A stretch of 64,000 nt of DNA from an uncultured Eubacteriaceae bacterium (GCA_903789635.1 CAIFEY010000012.1:138-64137), one strand, 5' to 3'; positions 2,790-38,711 are shown, counted from the stretch's first letter. Numbers and translations are program-made. Notes: generated by a model not told the origin, from the letters alone.

Positions 2790-3803
2790 TTATTTATGGT
2801 CTACGGAGTACATGTACTTCGCGAGCTCCAGAGCCTTGCTGGAATAACCGAACTCGTTGTCGTAGTAAGCGATCAGCTTGAAGACGTGGTCGTTCAGCTC
2901 GATTCCCTCGTTTGCGTCAAAGATCGATGTGCAAGGATCGCCGAGGAAGTCGCCGGATACGACCTGGTCGTCCGTGTACTCGAGAATGCCCTTCATCTCA
3001 CCCTCGGAAGCCTCGCGGATTGCCTTGCAGATCTCCTCATAAGAAGTCGCCTTCTTGGTTACGACGTTCAGGTCGACAACGGAGACGTCGATCGTCGGGA
3101 TGCGGTATGCGATTCCGTTCATCTTGCCGGCGAGATCCGGGATGACCTTGCTGACTGCCTTGGCCGCACCTGTGGTCGTCGGGATGATGTTTCCGAAGAT
3201 GCTGCGTCCTCTTCTCCAGTCCTTCTCGGACTTGGCGTCTACAACCTTCTGCTTGGCGGTTGCGGCGTGAATCGTGGACATCATGCCGTTCTCGATGCCG
3301 AAGTTGTCGTTCAGGACCTTGCACAGAGGTGCCAGGCAGTTCGTCGTGCAGGATGCGTTGGAGACGACGTTCATGTCTGTCGTGTACTCCTTATGGTTTA
3401 CTCCGCATACGAATGTCGGGGTGTCGTCCTTAGCCGGAGCGGAGATGATGACCTTCTTGGCACCGCCCTGCAGGTGGCCCTTAGCCTTCTCTGTCGTCGT
3501 GAAAGCGCCCGTGCACTCGATGACGTACTCTGCACCGCACTCGCTCCAAGGAATGGCAGTGATATCATTCTCTCCGTAAACCGGAACCTTCTTTCCGTTG
3601 ATGACGAGTCCGCCCTCATACTTGTCGAGCGGCTTCGGGAATCTTCCGAAAGTCGAATCGTAACGGAGCATGTACAGCATGTAATCCAGATCCGCATTTC
3701 TCTTGTTAATTCCTGCGATCTCGATCTCCGGCATGTCCATAGCCGCGCGAAGAACGACCCTGGCAATTCTGCCGAATCCACTGATACCAATTTTAATAGC
3801 CAT
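2790..3803 (-). CDS. gap: Glyceraldehyde-3-phosphate dehydrogenase (type I)
   Basis: 337 aa. Contains [10 protein letters not shown] (NAD-binding fold), active-site [12 protein letters not shown], and WYDNE-like YYDNEFGYS. Confidence 0.96.
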
Positions 3804-3952
3804 TATTGCCTCCTAAGGTAAAATAAAAAATCAAAACGCTGATTCGCCCACTGACCCTGCATCGCAGCGGCCGCCGCAGCATCGCATGACTAAGTGACCG
3901 CAATGCTCACGATCAGGGCATAATTCAAATACAGTATAACATTACCTGAATA

Positions 3953-4423
3953 TTATTTCAATCCTGGAAACCCGAGCTGCCTGAGCCCCTCGAAAAGCAC
4001 GATGTTCGCAGAATTCGCGAGGTTGAAGGAGCGAAGGCGCGTGCTGGCGCTCATCGGGATCCGGATCGACCGGTCCGGGTGCTCCGCCAGGAAGTCGCGC
4101 GGAAGGCCCCTGGTCTCCCGTCCGAACAGCAGCATGTCCTCGTCGCGGTACTCGACGTCCGTGTAGTACTGCTTTCCCTGCGTGCTGACGAGCCACATCC
4201 TCCTGCCCGCATACTGCTCCAAAAACTCGCTCAGACTCTCATGCACCTCGAGCTTGACGTACGGCCAGTAATCCAGCCCCGCGCGGAGCACCGACTTGTC
4301 GTCAATGTTGAATCCGAGCGGCTTGACCAGGTGCAGGACCGTGTCCGTCGCAGCGCACGTCCTCGCGACATTTCCCGTGTTCGGCGGAATTTCCGGCTCC
4401 ACCAGGACCACATGCATAGCCAT
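3953..4423 (-). CDS. trmL: tRNA (cytidine/uridine-34 2'-O)-methyltransferase, SpoU/TrmL family
   Basis: 156 aa. VVLVEPEIPPNTGNVARTCAA and the size are typical of TrmL. Confidence 0.88.
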   Translation of the reverse strand: MAMHVVLVEPEIPPNTGNVARTCAATDTVLHLVKPLGFNIDDKSVLRAGLDYWPYVKLEVHESLSEFLEQYAGRRMWLVSTQGKQYYTDVEYRDEDMLLFGRETRGLPRDFLAEHPDRSIRIPMSASTRLRSFNLANSANIVLFEGLRQLGFPGLK

Positions 4424-4671
4424 GTTTTACCTCCTTGACCGGCGTTCTTCGCGCCGTGATGATCCGTTTCTTTCAGACAAAATCCACCCGCCCTTCACAC
4501 CACGCGGACTGCCGTAATCCGGTGCGCCCGCGCCGTGATTCCCATTGTTTGTTCGCGCGCTCGCGCCTCGCTTTTTTCATGGCGTGCGGCGCTGTCTAAA
4601 CCCCGAGGCGCGGAACCCCGGAATCCATCAGACAGGTAATTTCCTGCCTGATTCGTTAAAATTTTGTCTGA

Positions 4672-4708
4672 AGAGAAAACAACAAAAACGGGCTCCAAAA
4701 AGAGCCCG
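4672..4708 (-). terminator. Rho-independent terminator downstream of the SEC-C gene
   Basis: The minus strand reads cgggctc-ttttt-gagcccg followed by tttttgttgtttt, about 20 nt after the stop at 4728. Confidence 0.8.
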
Positions 4709-4727
4709 AATGGTATTTATTTCCCGC

Positions 4728-5234
4728 TTAGGCGTTTTTGCCGCAGCAGTTCTTATACTTCTTTCCGCTTCCGCACGGGCACGGATCGTTGCGGCCCGGC
4801 TTCTTCGGTGCGTGGTAGGTCTTGGACTGCTTGTAGGACTTCGTAATCTCCTCACGCTCCTGCTCGTTCAGCACCTTGGCCCACTGCGGCAGGGAAAACA
4901 GGTGGTCCGCCTCCGCCTTATGCATGTTGAAGTACAGTTTCTTAAAGTCGATGGAAAGATCGATCTCCGTGTCCTCGGTCACGTTCTCCAGGTCCAGGGA
5001 CGCAGGATCGTTCAGGCTGTCCTGCACGCCGTCCAGGAATCCGACAAAGATAACGTTCGTCGTATCGAACTTCTCTGCGAGCTCGGAAACCTTTCCCTTG
5101 AGGTTCTCCGTGTGGTTCTCCAGGACGCTGCCGTAGATCGCCTTCTCCGCAGCCGCATACTCCTCCCAGAACTTAGGGAAGCTCTCGTTGGTCTGATTCT
5201 TCAGGAGATCGTTCCATTCTTGATATAAACTCAT
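4728..5234 (-). CDS. SEC-C metal-binding motif protein (function unknown)
   Basis: C-terminal [17 protein letters not shown] is the SEC-C motif. Start trimmed to MSLYQEW (ATG 5234) because GGAGGG lies 8 nt upstream. The upstream 38 codons of the ORF look like non-coding read-through. Confidence 0.85.
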
Positions 5235-26367: not shown

Positions 26368-26915
26368 GTATACAGTATGCATTGATGACATCTATAGGAA
26401 AAACACTCCAATGGCCAATTAATCCTTCAGTTTTTCAGCAGGAAGATTAATCTTGTATTTTGGTGTAACAGGTTTTCCGAATTTCAGCAATGCATATTTT
26501 CCAGCGCCTTGGTGGAACTTCCTCGCCGTCTGAAAGCGCCAAAAGTAGTCTGACAATTTAAGAGGCTTGAATTTGACACGAAAATGATTCGCAATCAGCC
26601 TTTAAGACATCTACGAATGGCTAACCAGTGTCCGTGGAGGTGAACAAACGCCAAAGTAGAATGCATATTTACACGCAGCGTACAATAACCGATCACCATT
26701 TTGGCCGCTACGGACGATATTTTCCTGGGCAAGCGCAAAGAAGAGACAATTTTCTGTGGTTATGACAAATTCACAACGGCAGTAAATCTATAAGGTCAAT
26801 CGGCGCTAGGAAGCTGTTATGTAATGATACTGAATTTGCGCCATTATGGAATTCGGTAAATTGCGTTCCACCAACATGGAGAAATCTCACTCCTGCAGAA
26901 AAACATACAGTATAC
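26368..26915. repeat. 548-bp AT-rich conserved non-coding module, copy C1 (candidate large structured RNA or defined DNA element)
   Basis: Co-linear with 36463-37010 and of identical length. There are 10-30-nt near-identical blocks (tggtgtaac.g.ttttccgaatttcagcaatgc, ccttggtggaac, agtctgacaatttaag, cggacgatattttcc, ctgttatgtaa, gcgttccacca) separated by variable blocks. It starts with gtatacagtatgc and ends with catacagtatac. No conserved ORF. Confidence 0.85.
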
Positions 26916-29761: not shown

Positions 29762-30997
29762 TTAATAGATCAGCCCGTACTTCTCCGAGAGCGGCGCAAG
29801 CACCTTCTCCGGCAGCCCGCCGTCGTACATCGCCCTGCCCTGGTACGCGCGCAGCGCGCCTTCGAGCGCCTCCGCGTCTTCCGTAACGATGCAGAGCGGC
29901 TTTCTGACCGCGTACTGCGCATCGGCGAAGTCGTCGAGCTCGTCCGGCGAATCGATCCGAACGGCGATGACCTGCGCGTCCGAGTCCCCCGCCTCGTCGA
30001 GCGCGGAGGCGAGGTCGGCGTCGCATGGGAGCGGCTCCGGAACGGCGACCGAAGGGTCGAGCGGGAATACCTCCTTCTCGGTCGCGAGCGGGAGCTTTCC
30101 GATGAGCTCGACCGGGTTCAGCGGGGTCTCCTTAAATGCGTTCGCCGCCTCTCTGATCGCCCGAATGTGGTCCGGACCCGTGCCGCAGCAGCCGCCGAAC
30201 AGGCAGACGCCCGCCTTCGCGTACGCGTACTGGACCGCGGCGAACCGTTCCGGCGGGCAGTCGTAATAGGTCCTGCCATCAGCCGTTATTGGCATGCCGG
30301 CGTTGGCCTTTGCCGAGAGGGGCACCTCCGCGTAGCGGTGCAGGCGCTTCATCTGGCGCAGCATGTCCTCCGGGCCGACCGAGCAGTTCATGCCGAACGC
30401 ATCGACGCCCATGCCCTGGAAAATATCGAGGACCGCCGCGATGTCGCTGCCCGTGACCGTGCGCCCCTTCTCGTCGCAGGTGAAGGAGATCAGGACCGGC
30501 CGGTCGCTGACCGCACGCACCGCAAGCAGGGCCGCACGCGCGTCCGCCACCGTCATCATCGTCTCGATGACGTACATGTCCACGCCCGCCTCCTCAAGCG
30601 CCGTCACCTGCTCCAGGTAGATCTCGTATAGGTCCTCGAACCTGGCGTCGCCCATAGGCGCGAGGAATTTACCCGTCGGCGCGATGTCCCCCGCGACCAG
30701 GATGCGCCTGTCCGCCCCGGCCTCCTCGACCGCGCGCCTGGAAAGTTTTACCAGCTTCTGGTTGTACTCGGCCGTCCGGTTGAAGATCCCGTTCTCCTCG
30801 AGCTTCACCCGGTTGGCACCAAAGGTCGGCGCGTAAATCACATCCGAGCCCGCCTCGATGTACCGCTTCTGCAGGTCGATAATCGCCTCCGGATGCTCCT
30901 GCACCCACCTCTCTTCACAGATCGATCCGTCGTAGCCGCACTTCTGCAGCTCCGTCCCCGTCGCCCCGTCTAAAATCAAAGGGAAATATAGTTCCAT
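29762..30997 (-). CDS. Homocysteine S-methyltransferase domain protein (zinc/thiol methyltransferase, MetH N-terminal-domain-like)
   Basis: 411 aa. Contains LILDGATGTELQ and the zinc-ligand cysteines in MNCSVGP and FGGCCGTGPDHI. An extra C-terminal region of about 110 aa is present. Confidence 0.85.
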   Translation of the reverse strand: MELYFPLILDGATGTELQKCGYDGSICEERWVQEHPEAIIDLQKRYIEAGSDVIYAPTFGANRVKLEENGIFNRTAEYNQKLVKLSRRAVEEAGADRRILVAGDIAPTGKFLAPMGDARFEDLYEIYLEQVTALEEAGVDMYVIETMMTVADARAALLAVRAVSDRPVLISFTCDEKGRTVTGSDIAAVLDIFQGMGVDAFGMNCSVGPEDMLRQMKRLHRYAEVPLSAKANAGMPITADGRTYYDCPPERFAAVQYAYAKAGVCLFGGCCGTGPDHIRAIREAANAFKETPLNPVELIGKLPLATEKEVFPLDPSVAVPEPLPCDADLASALDEAGDSDAQVIAVRIDSPDELDDFADAQYAVRKPLCIVTEDAEALEGALRAYQGRAMYDGGLPEKVLAPLSEKYGLIY

Positions 30998-31052
30998 ATC
31001 CGTTAATCCTTCTGGTTATCATCATCTTATGCGTTTTATGCGTTGAAACCGG

Positions 31053-33041
31053 CTACTCCTGTGTTTCCTCAAACGCCATCTTGTCGATATACGCGTCGTT
31101 GAACGCCGTGTTCCCGGAAAGCTCCAGATAACGGCAGCCGCGCTGGATCTCCTGCATCGCAGCGAACGCCGCGTGGTCCGCGCAGGACATCTCCATGCCG
31201 AGCAGCGACGCGTTGCCTAGGTAGACGGCCTTGCCGGAAAGCGATTCCGGGAACATGCCGATCCTCGCCGCGCTGGCAAGGTTCAGGTGCTTCCCGAACC
31301 CTCCCGCGATATAAAGGTGCCTCACCTCGTCCTCGGAAACCCCGCTCTCCTGCAGCAGGACCTCGATCCCGGCCGCTATCGCCGCCTTCGCGAGCTGCAG
31401 CTCCCGCACGTCCTGCGCCGTGAAGCGGACGGCACTGTTGAAGCCGCCCTGGGCATCCTGGCCGTCCCGACTGCCCTGATTTCCTTGAGCGTCCTGGCCG
31501 CCCTGATCGCCCTGGTCGTCCCGATAGAACACGAACCTCCCGTTCCCGTCCTCGTCCTCTTCCAAATACGGCAGGATCGCCGGATCCACGCCCTCCTCGG
31601 CTGCCTCTTCAGGCGGCAGAAAATACCCGCTCTCATCGACCACGCCCTGCCGGAGCAGGAACGCAAGCAGGTCGATCAGGCCCGAACCGCAGATGCCGGA
31701 AGGCTTCCCGCCGCCGACAACGGAGAGCCGAAGCTTCCCGTCCTGCCAGGAAACTTCGGAAATCGCGCCCGGAGATGCCGCCATGCCGCAGCTGATCCTG
31801 GCCCCCTCGAACGCCGGTCCCGACGCGACCGCGCAGCAGAGGAACCCGTCCCGCCCGCCGATCGCCATCTCACCGTTCGTGCCGATGTCGAGCAGCAGGC
31901 TCATTCCCTCCTGCTCGCGCATCTTAGACGCCGCGAGCCCGGACAGGATGTCGCCGCCGACGTACCCAGCCGCGCACGGCGCCGCGTAAATGCCGCCGGT
32001 GCAGGCGGCATCACCGGCTACAGTCCTGCCATCGCTGCCGGCGGCATCACCGGCTTCAATCCTGCCGCCGGTTCCGGCAGCATCACCGGCTTTGATTTTG
32101 TCGCTGTATACAGTGTTCACACTGGTTCCAACGCTGCCACTCGTCTCGGTGCTGCCGCCGGTTCGGGTATGATTGTCTCTTTCTACATTCCGGAAATTCC
32201 GCAATGTCGTCCCTAACGTAAGAAGCGAAAACTTCTCCCTCCACTCGTCCGAAAACGGCTCCGCCATTACGCGGTACCCCGGCGATTCGCCGTCCGTGAA
32301 CAGCGTTTCCGGCGTGAACGGCGCGGACGCGATCGAGACCGGCGAGATCCCGAAAAAAATGTGCTGCATGATCGTGTTCCCGGCGACGTAGAGCGCCTGG
32401 AGGCACGAAGACGCAACCCCCGCGTCCCGGCAGAGCCCCTCGAGCAGCTCCGCGGTCTGTTCCCGGATCGCAGAAGTCAGGACCGCGAGCCCGGAATGGT
32501 TCTCGCTTTCCTGGATAAACTGGATCCTCGAGATCACGTCCGCCCCGTACGCCGCCTGGCGGTTCCAGCCGCCGCGCCGTGCGATGACGGCCGGGCTTTC
32601 CGAGCCGCCCCCGGCAGGCGTCCGAACCAGCGCCGCCGCGACCGTCGTCGTCCCGATGTCCAGGGCGGCGGCGTAGGTAAATCCCCCGCGCCCGGATTCC
32701 GACGGCGTCTGCCAGGAAGTCCCCTCGGCCGCGGGCTCTGCAGCAAGGCTCTCGACACCTTCGACCAGGATATCCGATTCCGAGCGGTCCTCGAGGATCA
32801 CCTCCATGCCGTCAGTCACCTGCGTGCGGCACGCGAGCCGCTCCTGGAAACCGCCGCCGGCAGATGGATTCGCCTCGCCGGCAGTCCGCACCATCACGCG
32901 GCACTTCCCGCACGTCCCGTTTCCGCCGCACGCGGCAGGAATGAAGAACCCGCCGCGCCTCAGCAGCCCCAGGAGATTCTCCCCAGGCTCCGCGCGGAGG
33001 ACGCTCTCCTTTCCGTTTTGCATGATTCTGATCGCTGTCAT
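31053..33041 (-). CDS. Corrinoid reductive activator (RACE-type: N-terminal 2Fe-2S ferredoxin + ASKHA/DUF4445 ATPase)
   Basis: Plant-type ferredoxin motif CGGNGTCGKCRV near the N-terminus, then a large ASKHA-like body (ALDIGTTT, LLLDIGTNGE). Start set to MTAIRIMQ (GGAGAGGGAG upstream); the alternative start is 33059. Carries low-complexity inserts. Confidence 0.82.
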   Translation of the reverse strand: MTAIRIMQNGKESVLRAEPGENLLGLLRRGGFFIPAACGGNGTCGKCRVMVRTAGEANPSAGGGFQERLACRTQVTDGMEVILEDRSESDILVEGVESLAAEPAAEGTSWQTPSESGRGGFTYAAALDIGTTTVAAALVRTPAGGGSESPAVIARRGGWNRQAAYGADVISRIQFIQESENHSGLAVLTSAIREQTAELLEGLCRDAGVASSCLQALYVAGNTIMQHIFFGISPVSIASAPFTPETLFTDGESPGYRVMAEPFSDEWREKFSLLTLGTTLRNFRNVERDNHTRTGGSTETSGSVGTSVNTVYSDKIKAGDAAGTGGRIEAGDAAGSDGRTVAGDAACTGGIYAAPCAAGYVGGDILSGLAASKMREQEGMSLLLDIGTNGEMAIGGRDGFLCCAVASGPAFEGARISCGMAASPGAISEVSWQDGKLRLSVVGGGKPSGICGSGLIDLLAFLLRQGVVDESGYFLPPEEAAEEGVDPAILPYLEEDEDGNGRFVFYRDDQGDQGGQDAQGNQGSRDGQDAQGGFNSAVRFTAQDVRELQLAKAAIAAGIEVLLQESGVSEDEVRHLYIAGGFGKHLNLASAARIGMFPESLSGKAVYLGNASLLGMEMSCADHAAFAAMQEIQRGCRYLELSGNTAFNDAYIDKMAFEETQE

Positions 33042-33379
33042 TATCTCCCTCTCCGTCATTTAATGCCGATCCCTTGTCCTTTCTTTTGCCCATCTCATTG
33101 TGAATTTCATCTATTATATACAAGAAAGATAGGGTATAATATGTTTATCTTACACAAGATCCGGGCGATTCGCAAGCCGGGAATGGGAAGACGGTCCGAA
33201 GAAAGTGTACTTGATTCTAGTACCTGGTTTCTATATATTATTTGTTCTTATATGTTCGTATAATATATTCATCGATGATCATAGGGACTGGGATCATTAG
33301 GACTGCGTCTGCGCGTCTATGATACCGGACATGGAACCGGAAAGTCGGTAAGTTGAATTTTTGGAGAGGGGGTGAGTTA

Positions 33380-34114
33380 ATGGCGAATGAAGTGGATAAC
33401 GAAATGACAAATGAATTGGCGGACGAATCAGCGAACGAATTGGCGAACCAAACGAATACGAACGGCAATCCCGTGGTTTCCGATGAAGTCGACGTTTCTG
33501 ACGAAAATATGGTTTCCGACGAAAACATCGAAAACGACGAATGCGATGAATGCAATAAGACCTTCGAGACCCTGAAGAGGCTAGCGGGCGAGATCGGGTT
33601 CGAGCACTTCGGAAAGCTGAACACGGACGCGCTGATCTTCCGCGAGGAGGTCCGCGCGATGTGCGAGGACGACCGGTGCGGAAGCTGGAATAAGAGCTGG
33701 ACGTGCCCGCCCGCGTGCGGCAGCCTTGAAGCGATTTCCCGGCGCGCCAAAAGGTTTTCCGAGGGCATCCTGGTCCAGACGACCGGAAGTCTTGAGGACC
33801 CGTTCGACATGGAGGCGATGCGTGACCTGGAAGCCCTGCACAAGCAGCGTTTCCAGACGTTCGTCCGCCAGGCTGAGCAGGTGTGCAGCAGAACCCTGCC
33901 GATGTCTGCGGGAACGTGTACACTTTGCCGCCGCTGCACCTACCCGAGCCGCCCCTGCCGCTTCCCCGGCCGTGCACACCCGTCGATGGAGGCGTACGGC
34001 CTGCTGATTTCCGAGGTCCTGGAGCGCTCCGGCATGCGGTACAACTACGGGAAGAACACGATGACGTTCACGTCGTGCATCCTCTTCCAGGGACAAAAAC
34101 CCGAAAGGCCTTGA
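33380..34114 (+). CDS. DUF2284-type predicted metal-binding protein with acidic N-terminal extension
   Basis: The Cys-rich core is CEDDRCGSWNKSWTCPPACG ... CTLCRRCTYPSRPCRFP. The N-terminal 60 aa are D/E/N-rich repeats. RBS GGAGAGGGGG precedes MANEV. Confidence 0.75.
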   Translation: MANEVDNEMTNELADESANELANQTNTNGNPVVSDEVDVSDENMVSDENIENDECDECNKTFETLKRLAGEIGFEHFGKLNTDALIFREEVRAMCEDDRCGSWNKSWTCPPACGSLEAISRRAKRFSEGILVQTTGSLEDPFDMEAMRDLEALHKQRFQTFVRQAEQVCSRTLPMSAGTCTLCRRCTYPSRPCRFPGRAHPSMEAYGLLISEVLERSGMRYNYGKNTMTFTSCILFQGQKPERP

Positions 34115-34242
34115 GACCACCGGACCTGCCGGCCCGGGAACACCCCGCGCCCGACGAACAGTAAAACTATAAGTTATAGATAGTATAAATAGCTTAAATC
34201 GAAAAAGAGAAATTTAGAGAAAAATCTAGAAGGAACTACCCC

Positions 34243-36075
34243 ATGATGACACCGAGAGAAAATTTTCTGGAACTGCTGAAGAGGGACGGCCGCCCTGAGC
34301 GCGTCCTGGACCAGTACGAGGCCATCAACCTCGTGCTCTACGACCCAATCAACGCCTACCTGCGCGGAAACCGCAAGCGCGGCACCACGAGCCAGGACCG
34401 CTGGGGCACCGTGATCGACTGGCCGGAGGATGCCCCGGGCGCGATGCCGCACGTCACCGACGACACCAAGGTTGTGAAAGATATCACACACTGGCGCGAC
34501 TACGTACACGTGCCTGACCTCGCCGCGAACGTCACCGAGGGCTGGGAGGCCTGCCGCGAGAAGGCCCGCGCCGCCGACCCGAACCACGAGAAACTGCTGA
34601 CCGGGTTCATGGGCACCGGAATCTTTGAGCAGTGCCACTTCCTGATCCCGTTCGCCGACGTCCTCGCCTACCTCTACGAGTACCCGGACGAGATGCACGA
34701 CCTGATCGAGACGATCACGGAATACCGCCTGCAGTACGTCAAGCTGCTGATCGACAATCTCCATCCCGACGCCATCCTCTCCCACGACGACTGGGGCGCC
34801 AAAGATGCGCTGTTCTTCCGCCCGGAGATGTGGCGTGAGTTCTTCAAGGAACCGTACGAACGCTTCTACGGCTACATCCGCTCCCGCGGCGTCATCACGA
34901 TCCACCACGCCGACTCCTACCTCGTGCCGATCTTAGACGACATGGTCGACGTCGGCATCCAGGTCTGGCAGGGCGCGCTGCCGGAGAACAACATTCCGGA
35001 GGTCCTGTCGCGCATGGACGGCCGCCTGGTCCTGATGGGCGGAATCGGCGCAGCCATCGACCGCAAGGACGCTGAAGGCCCAGAGATCCGCGCCTACGTC
35101 AGGGACGCGCTGAACCGTTACTGCCCGTACGGCCACTTCATCCCGTGCATCACCTACGGCGTTCCGGGCACCGTCTTCCCGCACGTCGACCCGTTCATCG
35201 ACGCCGAGATCGCAAGCTACAACGAGGAGGTCCACTTCCCGCGCTTCTGGCACGCGCCAGTCCGCAGACAAAAAAAACCATCCCCATCAGCACCGTCCCT
35301 GACGCCCGCCGCGCCCGCTGCTGCCGCAGCCGGCGCTCCCGGAACAGTTCACCCTGGCACCGCAGCCGGAACTGTATACCCTGCCGCCCCAGCCGGAACT
35401 GCCAATCCAAGCGCCGCATCCGCCGACCTTCCGCTCACCGCGCAGCTCTCCGCCGCCCTTGAGAAAGGCCGGAAAGCCAAAGTCGTCTCCCTCACCAAGG
35501 AGGCGCTGGAAGCCGGCGTCGACCCGGAATCCATCCTGGCCGACGGCCTGATCGCCGGCATGAACGCGGTCGGCGAGGCCTTCTCCGCGAACAAGGTCTT
35601 CGTCCCTGAGATGATCATGGCCGCCCGCTGCATGGTCGCCTCCACCGAAATCCTGAAGCCGCACCTGGTCAAGGACGCCCAAGGCACCTCCAAGGGCCGC
35701 GTCATCCTCGGCACGGTCAAGGGCGACCTCCACGACATCGGAAAGAACCTGGTCAAGATCATGATGGAAGGAAGCGGCCTCGAGGTCATCGACCTCGGCA
35801 CCGACATCTCCGCAGAGGACTTCGTCCAGACCGCGATCGACAGGGACGCCGACATGATCGCCTGCTCCGCCCTGCTGACGACCAGCATGCCGGAGATGAA
35901 GAACGTCGTCGCCGAGGCCACCCGCCGCGGCATCCGCGACACCGTCAAAATCCTGATCGGCGGCGCCCCGGTCACCCAGGACTACTGCGACGAGATCGGC
36001 GCCGACGCCTACACCGACGACGCCGCGGCCGCCGCCCGCGCCGCGGTGAAGATCATCGCCGGCGCGGCCGTATAG
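34243..36075 (+). CDS. CmuA-like fusion: URO-D/MtaA-family methyltransferase domain + Pro/Ala linker + corrinoid (B12)-binding domain
   Basis: 610 aa. The N-terminal ~340 aa are MtaA/uroporphyrinogen-decarboxylase-like. The linker is PSPSAPSLTPAAPAAAAAGAPG.... The C-terminus has the cap helix bundle and Rossmann domain with the DxHxxG motif (GDLHDIGKNLV). Confidence 0.85.
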   Translation: MMTPRENFLELLKRDGRPERVLDQYEAINLVLYDPINAYLRGNRKRGTTSQDRWGTVIDWPEDAPGAMPHVTDDTKVVKDITHWRDYVHVPDLAANVTEGWEACREKARAADPNHEKLLTGFMGTGIFEQCHFLIPFADVLAYLYEYPDEMHDLIETITEYRLQYVKLLIDNLHPDAILSHDDWGAKDALFFRPEMWREFFKEPYERFYGYIRSRGVITIHHADSYLVPILDDMVDVGIQVWQGALPENNIPEVLSRMDGRLVLMGGIGAAIDRKDAEGPEIRAYVRDALNRYCPYGHFIPCITYGVPGTVFPHVDPFIDAEIASYNEEVHFPRFWHAPVRRQKKPSPSAPSLTPAAPAAAAAGAPGTVHPGTAAGTVYPAAPAGTANPSAASADLPLTAQLSAALEKGRKAKVVSLTKEALEAGVDPESILADGLIAGMNAVGEAFSANKVFVPEMIMAARCMVASTEILKPHLVKDAQGTSKGRVILGTVKGDLHDIGKNLVKIMMEGSGLEVIDLGTDISAEDFVQTAIDRDADMIACSALLTTSMPEMKNVVAEATRRGIRDTVKILIGGAPVTQDYCDEIGADAYTDDAAAAARAAVKIIAGAAV

Positions 36076-36462: not shown

Positions 36463-37010
36463 GTATACAGTACACATAGATGATATCTATCGGAAGTCCC
36501 CCGTAAGGACATTTTTGTCTTTCGTTTTTCAGCACGAACGCAGATCTTGAAATTTGGTGTAACGGATTTTCCGAATTTCAGCAATGCGAATGATTCTGCT
36601 CCTTGGTGGAACGTTTTCGCCGCCGGAAATCAAGTGAATTAGTCTGACAATTTAAGGATAAGCAGATGCTGCATATAAATAGCCCGCGGGCACTCCGGAT
36701 GGGGTCCGAATACCCCCTGTGAGTGCCCGCGGCGGTGAACAAGTGCTCAAGTTAAATGTATATTTGTATGATATGTCGAAATTCAGATCTCCATTGGATC
36801 GCCGCGGACGATATTTTCCCTGAAAGGGCCGCGAAAAGCAGACGAATTCCTGAAAGCACAGCGAATTGCATATATGGTAATTCTATAAGACCACGAGACT
36901 CTCAGAACCTGTTATGTAAAGACATCGGTTTTTCGCTATTATGGAACTTCGCAAATCGCGTTCCACCAGGATAAATAATTTGCGATCCTACTGAACAGAA
37001 TACAATATGC
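36463..37010. repeat. 548-bp AT-rich conserved non-coding module, copy C2
   Basis: Same block order and total length as C1. Starts with gtatacagtacac and ends with gaatacaatatgc. One variable block forms a 13-bp GC hairpin (36682-36695 / 36721-36733) that is absent from C1. Confidence 0.85.
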
Positions 37011-38195: not shown

Positions 38196-38268
38196 TACTC
38201 AGACTCGGAATTGAACCAAGGACACGGGGATTTTCAGTCCCCTGCTCTACCTACTGAGCTATCTGAGC
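38196..38268 (-). tRNA. tRNA-Phe (anticodon GAA)
   Basis: GCTCAGATAGCTCAGTAGGTAGAGCAGGGGACTGAAAATCCCC...GGTTCAATTCCGAGTCTGAGTA. Cloverleaf folds by eye. CCA is not encoded. Confidence 0.9.
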
Positions 38269-38275
38269 AAAAAAT

Positions 38276-38349
<74 letters not shown>

Positions 38350-38356
38350 ATAAAAT

Positions 38357-38431
38357 TGGAGCGGAAGACGAGATTCGAACTCGCGACCCCCGCCTTGGCA
38401 AGGCGGTGCTCTACCCCTGAGCCACTTCCGC
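38357..38431 (-). tRNA. tRNA-Gly (anticodon GCC)
   Basis: GCGGAAGTGGCTCAGGGGTAGAGCACCGCCTTGCCAAGGCGGGGGTCGCGAGTTCGAATCTCGTCTTCCGCTCCA. Confidence 0.93.
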
Positions 38432-38437
38432 ATAGAA

Positions 38438-38519
38438 TCGAGGGAGATGGATTCGAACCATCGTAAGCTCAGCTAACGGATTTACAGTCCGCCCCCTTTA
38501 GCCACTCGGGCATCCCTCG
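38438..38519 (-). tRNA. tRNA-Tyr (anticodon GTA), long variable arm
   Basis: CGAGGGATGCCCGAGTGGCTAAAGGGGGCGGACTGTAAATCCGTTAGCTGAGCTTACGATGGTTCGAATCCATCTCCCTCGA. CCA is not encoded. Confidence 0.88.
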
Positions 38520-38553
38520 ACATGATTAAATTGTAAGCATTCACCTGAATGAA

Positions 38554-38628
38554 TGGAGCTGGCGGGGGGAATCGAACCCTCAACCTGCTGATTACAAATC
38601 AGCTGCTCTACCGTTGAGCCACGCCAGC
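38554..38628 (-). tRNA. tRNA-Thr (anticodon TGT)
   Basis: GCTGGCGTGGCTCAACGGTAGAGCAGCTGATTTGTAATCAGCAGGTTGAGGGTTCGATTCCCCCCGCCAGCTCCA. Confidence 0.93.
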
Positions 38629-38634
38629 ATAAAT

Positions 38635-38711
38635 TGGCGACCAAGACCGGGTTCGAACCGGTGACCTCCAGCGTGACAGGCTGGCATTCTAACCAACTGA
38701 ACTACTTGGCC
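38635..38711 (-). tRNA. tRNA-Asp (anticodon GTC)
   Basis: GGCCAAGTAGTTCAGTTGGTTAGAATGCCAGCCTGTCACGCTGGAGGTCACCGGTTCGAACCCGGTCTTGGTCGCCA. Confidence 0.93.

Follow-up and report, generated by a model that had tools for sequence, protein, structure and literature searches.

How does a bacterium methylate homocysteine if folate does not deliver the methyl group? This question is raised by a divergent locus at positions 29762 to 36075 of a 64,000-nt stretch of DNA from an uncultured Eubacteriaceae bacterium (GCA_903789635.1 CAIFEY010000012.1:138-64137; this whole stretch is called the window here). The locus encodes a homocysteine methyltransferase (HcyMT) and a reductive activator of corrinoid enzymes (RACE) on one strand, and a cysteine-rich DUF2284 protein and a fusion of a URO-D-fold methyltransferase domain with a corrinoid-binding module on the other. 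Donor-side methyltransferase (MT I), corrinoid carrier, acceptor-side methyltransferase (MT II), and reductive activase are thus encoded together; they are co-conserved, and two of them are fused. It is reasonably probable, in our view, that these four genes specify a modular, corrinoid-dependent methyl-X:homocysteine methyltransferase, in effect a methionine synthase that depends on B12 but makes no use of methyl-tetrahydrofolate.

An earlier note, made from the sequence of the window alone, had proposed a self-contained pathway from a methyl donor to corrinoid to homocysteine that bypasses folate. Gene linkage, a MetH-type active site, altered folate contacts, and genomes without any other recognisable methionine synthase all argue for such a pathway. 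Gene identities were taken from an open reading frame listing and from Pfam and NCBIfam scans, which place all four genes and their domains where the earlier note had put them (Table 1).

The proposed acceptor side is half of a methionine synthase

The 411-aa HcyMT derives from the N-terminal half of MetH. Its closest solved relative is Thermotoga maritima MetH(1-566) (E 2e-62), and its AlphaFold model (pLDDT 94.5) superposes on that structure (3bof) with a TMq of 0.88 over 432 columns at 31% identity. The complete zinc site (C...CC) that had been read from the sequence is indeed there: C205, C270, and C271 align with the zinc ligands C207, C272, and C273 of T. maritima MetH. E145 aligns with E146, a residue of the conserved ET motif; this Glu contacts the amino group of homocysteine. 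The zinc cysteines, E145, and the DGxxGT motif are invariant among 34 homologues.

Residues 7 to 284 form the Zn(Cys)3 barrel, and residues ~300 to 411 form a linker and a truncated half of a pterin barrel. The earlier note had described a faint resemblance of this last part to a truncated MetH pterin segment, and the resemblance is real. A second, weak segment aligns residues 361–395 with residues 380–414 of the T. maritima pterin barrel, with 'ALRAYxGR' in common. Against the MetH of the same genome, residues 7–408 align at 34% identity (E 2e-63), up to the point where strand five of the folate barrel starts. The Pfam scan finds no match to the complete pterin-binding barrel (PF00809) in HcyMT, only the first half of a barrel, in agreement with the note's statement that a full pterin domain is missing.

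The residues that contact folate in the genome's own MetH are altered in HcyMT: ERINPTG (ERxNxTG) has become TEKEVFP, PLQIDS has become PLCIVT, and IVNS has become MYDG. The half barrel is therefore predicted to hold no folate site. It is strongly conserved among HcyMT homologues, with Q361, A381, L382, Y385, Q386, G387, Y391, G393, Y407, and G408 invariant, and hence it should be functional, plausibly as a support or docking surface.

The proposed donor side appears to be an unnamed branch of the URO-D superfamily

The corrinoid half of the fusion is conventional. It scores 197.5 bits against the pyl_corrinoid model and 195.8 bits against the MtgC-like model of NCBIfam, both above the metH model (159 bits). 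The DxHxxG motif that had been noticed in the B12-binding domain is D495-x-H497-x-x-G500, and D495, H497, and G500 are invariant in the fusion family.

The URO-D half is less conventional. The earlier note had likened the fusion to the chloromethane methyltransferase CmuA. The order of the domains is the same, but the N-terminal domain does not belong to the MtaA/CmuA family: it scores 23.6 bits against the family model (TIGR01463), for which the cut-off is 235.4 bits. Even with a family profile included, sequence searches of the PDB gave MtaA at E 0.04 and nothing else; over sequence and fold searches together, the best PDB matches are MtaA and HemE only. In a fold search, the model of the domain (pLDDT 89.8) comes nearest to MtaA (4ay8; TM 0.68, 16% identity), which confirms the URO-D fold and offers no clue to the substrate. 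The note had held that a firm grouping within a characterised O-demethylase family with tetrahydrofolate as acceptor would speak against its proposal; at these scores the domain falls into no named family. It appears to be a deep, unnamed branch of the superfamily, as far as can be judged from a comparison with OdmB, VdmB, MtvB, MtoB, and CdmB by description of their ligand patterns only. A search for CmuA among plasmid sequences returned matches confined to the B12 domain, plus a Vescimonas orthologue of the fusion.

Within the fusion family, the URO-D domain is well conserved (mean column identity 77%). Its invariant residues are E129, H132, H181-D-D-W-G, H221-H222-A-D224-S, W242-Q-G, E248/N249, D273-R274, and T304-Y305-G, and the polar and aromatic ones are located at the C-terminal ends of strands in the model. 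In an alignment with three MtaA-like proteins (HICG...C) of the same genome, H222 corresponds to the zinc histidine, D224 to the first cysteine, and Y305 to the second. Hence, the domain reads His-x-Asp...Tyr where S-methyltransferases read His-x-Cys...Cys, and an HxC...C motif is missing; H-x-C is retained in more distant relatives. According to Kountz & Balskus (PMC10418091), His-Cys-Cys marks the S/Se-methyltransferases of the URO-D superfamily, and O-methyltransferases have carboxylates or non-ligands at the cysteine positions. By this rule His-Asp-Tyr is a weak indication that the methyl donor is probably an O-methyl compound. The non-cysteine pattern would also be compatible with the aromatic O-demethylase MT I clade and with CdmB.

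Relatives outside the fusion support a place on the donor side. Among 1.84 billion cluster representatives searched with the URO-D domain, 175 clusters match at E ≤ 1e-30, and some of them are stand-alone relatives of ~330 aa. In the family to which the window's genome belongs, the closest of these (34–48% identity) are neighbours of RACE and of corrinoid proteins that likewise stand alone, which fits an MT I role. No consistent acceptor or pathway was found in the contexts of the stand-alone relatives. Linker length differs among homologues of the fusion; the linker in the window is long and rich in Pro, Ala, Gly, and Thr.

The fusion and the homocysteine methyltransferase are tightly linked

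A scan with one genome for each species recovered the fusion in 323 species, and the neighbourhood counts given here refer to the 80 best loci of that scan. HcyMT adjoins the fusion in all 73 loci that are not cut by a contig end; the gene is absent from the other seven, every one of which is cut. The layout HcyMT<-RACE<- ->DUF2284->fusion is identical in 55 of the 80. RACE is missing locally in 13 loci, seven of which read HcyMT<- ->DUF2284->fusion and six HcyMT<- ->fusion, without RACE and DUF2284. A single operon DUF2284-fusion-HcyMT occurs in five. Overall, DUF2284 stands beside the fusion in 74/80 loci and RACE beside the module in 60/80. Because HcyMT is there in each of the 73 informative loci, it is the fusion and HcyMT that form the tight pair, and DUF2284 and RACE are frequent companions. 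With 55 of 80 loci sharing the layout and HcyMT beside the fusion in 73 of 73, the four-gene arrangement is far beyond chance. The gene set is thus conserved as a neighbourhood, a point on which the earlier note had made its proposal depend.

The carriers are gut, rumen, and oral Clostridia. They include Eubacterium sp. F2, [E.] saphenum, E. pyruvativorans, Mogibacterium, Baileyella, Candidatus Limivicinus, Vescimonas, Hominicoprocola, Lawsonibacter, and Solobacterium. Vescimonas fastidiosa MM35, Baileyella intestinalis, Eubacterium pyruvativorans, and Hominicoprocola fusiformis are in culture. The fusion gene is single-copy, with 57–80% identity across families. Fusion and HcyMT each have well over 1,000 homologues (90% identity clusters) with lengths of about 570 and 405 aa, respectively, which are ~60% identical to the proteins of the window.

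Flanking genes vary between lineages. FTCD_C, TetR, P5C reductase, Fe-alcohol dehydrogenase, amidohydrolase, and SNF transporter genes are neighbours in sub-clades only. In one Oscillospiraceae sub-clade, a gene for FTCD_C (formimino-tetrahydrofolate cyclodeaminase) lies 4 bp after HcyMT in seven loci (L047:4059-4712 and six others). In Vescimonas fastidiosa (L107:8762-10042 and 3515-4843), an amidohydrolase gene starts 22 bp after the fusion, and past HcyMT there is a gene for a sodium-dependent transporter. A Fe-alcohol dehydrogenase gene comes after HcyMT in E. pyruvativorans (L006:3188-4369). We regard these lineage-specific neighbours as hints only.

Two more distant relatives are arranged differently. 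At L095:431-5577, DUF2284 and RACE come after a fusion of 589 aa, all three on one strand, and a gene for a transporter of the formate/nitrite family stands ahead of the fusion; HcyMT is not visible on this short contig. At L096:3169-5010, a 613-aa protein has the reversed order, B12 then URO-D. Since its neighbours resemble the CfbA-E genes of coenzyme F430 biosynthesis, this relative presumably comes from a methanogen or a related archaeon.

Most of the checked carriers lack MetH, MetE, and MTHFR

We checked 35 module genomes. A MetH-type pterin domain together with MTHFR occurs only in the genome of the window and its four closest relatives. The other 30 are without MetH, MetE, and MTHFR, and a real MetE is found in none of the 35. 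PF02574 is represented by the module protein alone in 28 of these 30 genomes. A source of homocysteine is recognisable in 25 of the 30: AhcY in 18, LuxS in three more, and MetA alone in another four (MetA occurs in seven altogether). These genomes make homocysteine and encode no other enzyme to methylate it, from which we infer that the module fills the gap left by the missing methionine synthase. In most carriers other than the window's genome, the module is the sole recognisable homocysteine methyltransferase.

The genome of the window itself (2.6 Mb, 98% complete) is different. It has four PF02574 domains: the HcyMT of the module, a complete MetH, a YitJ-like HcyMT/MTHFR beside that MetH, and a stand-alone protein of ~326 aa. 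Its sole pterin-binding domain (PF00809) lies inside the complete MetH of ~800 aa, which is encoded on a different contig. Since this genome has MetH and a YitJ-type MTHFR as well, the module is accessory here. Hence, the module is an alternative to MetH in many lineages and an addition to it in others, including this one. The module looks functional here, since all family-invariant residues are intact in the proteins of the window.

The same genome contains a homoserine O-acyltransferase (MetA/HTS) domain at G000:C32:24687-25580, inside an open frame of ~760 aa, as do several Anaerovoracaceae relatives; the size suggests a fusion with another domain. It also has two further corrinoid methyltransferase clusters. 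One (G000:C1:132882-138807) resembles a type 1 mlp cluster: it encodes a second RACE and a stand-alone corrinoid protein, together with two MtaA-like proteins (HICG...C, His-Cys-Cys) and a protein of 242 aa. In the other (G000:C7:48615-52045), a membrane protein of 511 aa is encoded along with a corrinoid protein and an MtaA-like protein. For neither cluster was a pterin-type MT II found in the genome.

A proposed mechanism

How could the parts work together? The steps proposed here are all derived from homology. The URO-D domain would bind the methyl donor and present its methyl group to the Co(I) corrinoid on the B12 domain of the same polypeptide, which would yield CH3-Co(III). The flexible Pro/Ala linker would allow the B12 domain to swing to the separate HcyMT. 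There, the Zn(Cys)3 site would activate L-homocysteine as a thiolate, which would accept the methyl group to give methionine and Co(I). Corrinoid that has been oxidised to Co(II) would be reduced again by RACE with ATP and its 2Fe-2S cluster, in place of the AdoMet reactivation domain of classical MetH. The DUF2284 protein would be a cysteine-rich accessory, possibly an electron carrier for RACE. The half pterin barrel would be a conserved structural or docking relic of MetH ancestry that has lost folate binding. In our best reading the methyl group would thus move from a donor, probably an O-methyl compound, to Co(I) corrinoid and on to homocysteine to form methionine.

Weighing the reading

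Several observations weigh against a folate-independent methionine synthase, or at least against a confident naming of its donor. Calling substrates from similarity is risky in the URO-D superfamily, because CdmB is chloromethane-specific and metal-free and is yet nested among O-demethylases (PMC13222342, 2026). No transporter or catabolic gene that would point to the donor recurs near the module in the 80 loci, and no riboswitch was found around the locus or two orthologous loci; the most frequent extra neighbour is a generic ABC ATPase (17/80), and no gene outside the core is commoner. Five of the 30 carriers without MetH and MetE show no recognisable source of homocysteine, and carriers of this kind could simply be methionine auxotrophs. 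MetH accompanies the module in the window's genome and in 8 of the 12 fusion carriers of its family, where MetH is the norm. Among 151 Oscillospiraceae genomes, in which the type of module was called by a proxy of frame length and score, MetH occurs in 3 of 17 genomes with the module and in 57 of 134 without it, which is a trend only (odds ratio 0.29, Fisher p = 0.065). Many of the genomes are metagenome-assembled and may be incomplete. Finally, RefSeq gives the proteins generic names only ('homocysteine S-methyltransferase family protein', 'DUF2284 domain-containing protein', 'cobalamin-dependent protein').

One could also argue that the chemistry is right and the purpose is not. The module might be a catabolic or detoxifying demethylase that acts on methoxylated aromatics, methyl halides, or other methylated compounds, with homocysteine as a mere methyl sink and methionine supply not the selected function. 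The complete MetH and MTHFR that accompany the module in the window's genome, their presence in 8 of the 12 carriers of its family, and the two additional corrinoid methyltransferase clusters would suit such a role, and catabolism is the classical business of URO-D MT I enzymes (PMC13222342, PMC10418091). We still think it unlikely. The homocysteine pool is small and, without stoichiometric regeneration, ill suited as a bulk sink; the gene occurs in a single copy and is strongly conserved across families, unlike the multi-paralogue arsenals of O-demethylases; and catabolic genes for a demethylated product do not recur nearby. It is quite improbable, too, that the acceptor is another thiol or selenol (sulfide, selenide, cysteine, or mercaptopropionate) and that the module forms or salvages methyl-thiols or methyl-selenols like the type 1 mlp clusters. 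Zn-thiolate chemistry is generic to PF02574 enzymes, and corrinoid clusters without folate methyltransferases have been tied to S/Se-methyl metabolism (PMC10418091). However, the contacts to the amino-acid moiety of homocysteine are invariant in HcyMT (DGxxGT, and E145 as the equivalent of T. maritima E146), the protein is 31% identical to and superposable on a MetH that was crystallised with homocysteine (3bof), and nothing else could use up the homocysteine from AhcY or LuxS in 28 of 30 genomes.

Could folate still be involved? The URO-D domain might be a non-canonical folate module that uses 5-methyl-tetrahydrofolate or another methylated pterin, for example to free tetrahydrofolate from imported 5-methyl-folate in folate auxotrophs. 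Any PF00809 domain, that of DHPS included, is absent in 25 of 34 carriers, which makes folate import probable; in addition, the FTCD_C gene directly follows HcyMT in seven loci, and glycine-cleavage genes lie nearby in Vescimonas. We nevertheless regard this explanation as highly improbable. To our knowledge, no URO-D-fold protein binds folate, and the relatives of the domain are MT I-type partners of corrinoid proteins. It would also be unparsimonious to swap a working pterin barrel for an unrelated domain with the same substrate, and the carriers are without MTHFR. Another way to retain folate would be an ordinary split MetH, with HcyMT as its N-terminal piece and methyl-tetrahydrofolate used through a pterin subunit encoded elsewhere, and three-part split MetH systems do exist (PMC12478193). 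The earlier note had named this possibility as a danger to its proposal. We rejected it, and its probability seems practically negligible: the genome's only pterin domain belongs to the separate, complete MetH on a different contig, a pterin domain is absent from most carriers (30 of 35 lack MetH, MetE, and MTHFR), and the invariant neighbour of HcyMT is the URO-D/B12 fusion.

The module might finally run backwards. Methionine or another S-methyl compound in the homocysteine barrel would then methylate the corrinoid, and the URO-D domain would hand the methyl group to another acceptor; the earlier note had offered such a methyl-thiol demethylase as its alternative. A methyl transfer from a thioether to Co(I) is known for MtsA, as cited in PMC10418091. 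Most carriers ferment amino acids in methionine-rich habitats, which would also favour this direction. From MetH enzymology, on the other hand, methyl transfer from methylcobalamin to the homocysteine thiolate is strongly favoured. Moreover, the URO-D domain is without the thiolate-type zinc site that a thiol acceptor requires, and the carriers are without a pterin methyltransferase to receive the methyl group. Hence, reverse operation is the less likely direction and in our view a very remote prospect. Synthesis of methionine from a non-folate donor is the explanation that we retain.

Comparison with known systems

MetH (EC 2.1.1.13), especially in the short form of T. maritima and Clostridia, shares with the module a homocysteine Zn(Cys)3 barrel (31–34% identical and superposable) that leads into folate-barrel sequence, a Rossmann domain with DxHxxG and its B12 cap, and, as proposed, the second half-reaction from CH3-Co(III) to homocysteine. 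In the module, however, the pterin barrel is halved and its folate contacts are lost, and the B12 part resides on a separate polypeptide, fused to the URO-D domain, so that at least two proteins are involved. For reactivation the module has the RACE ATPase and not an AdoMet domain: Pfam finds PF02965 in none of the four proteins of the locus (it is absent from short MetH as well).

Our literature searches found no paper describing this set of partners. The earlier note likewise knew of no characterised system with it, but the general concept does have a precedent. MtgBCDE of Ruegeria pomeroyi and Phaeobacter inhibens (Rhodobacterales) has a stand-alone PF02574 subunit, MtgE, whose corrinoid partner also serves a pterin subunit and a glycine betaine methyltransferase (PMC12478193). 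By analogy, we consider it the closest known concept to the module. In both, a stand-alone homocysteine subunit takes (in the module, would take) the methyl group from a corrinoid protein loaded by a non-folate donor enzyme, and reactivation proteins are separate. The donor enzyme MtgB, however, is a glycine betaine methyltransferase of the MttB family (PF06253), whereas that of the module has a URO-D fold and is fused to its corrinoid domain. The pterin subunit MtgD is essential and bidirectional, whereas most module carriers have no pterin subunit. The hosts of the module are strict anaerobes of the Bacillota.

CmuA likewise joins an N-terminal URO-D-superfamily methyltransferase to a C-terminal corrinoid-binding domain in one polypeptide. 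The N-terminal domain of the module falls outside its family and is without HxC...C, and the partners differ: CmuB is a pterin-type methylcobalamin:tetrahydrofolate methyltransferase, and the module has a PF02574 homocysteine barrel. The O-demethylase and Cdm systems of acetogens and Desulfitobacterium (OdmB/VdmB/MtvB/CdmB) follow the same sequence from URO-D-fold MT I to corrinoid to MT II, with a RACE activator, and O-demethylases also have non-cysteine residues at the zinc-ligand positions (PMC10418091). Their MT II is a pterin protein that forms methyl-tetrahydrofolate, whereas that of the module is a MetH-type homocysteine domain. Furthermore, MT I and corrinoid protein are fused in the module, its gene is single-copy and highly conserved, and its hosts are mostly non-acetogens without MTHFR.

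Two other systems were compared. The core folate-independent methionine synthases MesA-D convert homocysteine to methionine with no need of methyl-folate, and for some of them a corrinoid protein may be the methyl source. Their catalytic domains are of the MetE type (PF01717 family; PMC7857596), unlike the MetH-type (PF02574) module with its own dedicated corrinoid/donor fusion. Kountz & Balskus describe type 1 mlp clusters with two MtaA-like proteins, Mlp2 and Mlp3, that have His-Cys-Cys sites; the fusion domain has His-Asp-Tyr.

Accessory genes and layout of the locus

The RACE protein consists of a 2Fe-2S ferredoxin domain and an ASKHA part, and it is AcsV-like at 310 bits, below the cut-off of that NCBIfam model. 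At 668 aa it is longer than its orthologues (median 507 aa), with three low-complexity in-frame insertions, rich in Gly, Asp, Ala, and Gln, that sit in gap columns of the orthologue alignment. The DUF2284 gene likely starts at the ATG at 33380, with a ribosome-binding site, GGAGAGGGGG, upstream. Its product, probably an accessory protein with Fe-S clusters, keeps the cysteine pattern C-x5-C-x7-CPPxC ... CxxCxxC-x6-C ... C that is conserved among 75 orthologues with a median length of 185 aa. The N-terminus (33380–33560) carries an acidic extension of ~60 aa, rich in Asp, Glu, and Asn, that the orthologues do not have.

Between the divergent genes lies a block of ~50 bp, TCTATTATATACAA...GGGTATAATATGTTTATCTTACACAAGAT, with TATAAT inside, that is nearly invariant in five related genomes and likely serves as the shared promoter/operator. 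Compared with close relatives, the window has ~200 bp extra between this block and the start of DUF2284. Rfam gives no family at E ≤ 1 in the intergenic region (32950–33450), and no SAM, T-box, or B12 riboswitch reaches the gathering threshold around the locus or two orthologous loci. The locus is flanked by two copies of a direct repeat (26425–26562 and 36519–36656; 138-nt ungapped core, 78% identical, spacing 10094 bp). To the right of the locus and the repeat copy, a six-tRNA operon lies on the minus strand (38196–38711).

Table 1. Features of the corrinoid methyl-transfer locus, in positions of the window.
Feature	Position	Strand	Basis
Homocysteine methyltransferase (HcyMT; proposed MT II, MetH N-terminal half), 411 aa	29762-30997	-	PF02574 E 3e-71, residues 7-284
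RACE/RamA-type ATP-dependent reductive activator of corrinoid enzymes, 668 aa	31053-33059	-	Fer2 + Raco_middle + RACo_C_ter
Conserved intergenic block with TATAAT	33108-33157	.	Near-invariance across five genomes
DUF2284 Cys-rich protein	33380-34114 (open frame from 33353)	+	PF10050 E 4e-47
Whole fusion, 610 aa	34243-36075	+	URO-D + B12-binding_2 + B12-binding
URO-D-fold methyltransferase domain of fusion (proposed MT I, donor side)	34243-35250	+	PF01208 E 5.5e-13
Pro/Ala/Gly/Thr-rich flexible linker of fusion	35251-35430	+	Gap columns in family alignment
Corrinoid-binding module of fusion: B12 cap aa 400-472, Rossmann B12 domain aa 485-597	35440-36075	+	PF02607 E 1e-19, PF02310 E 3e-28

What the module would mean for its hosts

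A wider claim would be that the module is the sole methionine synthase of hundreds of species of gut, rumen, and oral Clostridia without MetH, MetE, and MTHFR: a B12-dependent and folate-independent enzyme that puts a diet-derived methyl group onto homocysteine through a hitherto unrecognised URO-D donor domain with His and Asp in its active site. We regard this as possible, somewhat short of probable. Candidate donors would be methoxylated plant phenolics, methylated sugars, methanol, and methyl halides. The cultured carriers make the reading directly testable.

If it is true, the module would add a new substrate class to the URO-D methyltransferase superfamily, and it would be a natural case of module swapping in MetH, with the folate barrel reduced to a relic and the donor module replaced. 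Many abundant Oscillospiraceae and Anaerovoracaceae of gut and rumen that seem to have no methionine synthase would complete their methyl cycle through an enzyme that depends on B12 and not on folate, and predictions of auxotrophy for these taxa would change (e.g., in GapMind-type reconstructions). A major corrinoid-dependent process would be added to the competition for B12 in the gut. The supply of methionine and S-adenosylmethionine in these bacteria would then be tied to dietary methyl donors and the availability of corrinoids, and not to folate one-carbon metabolism.

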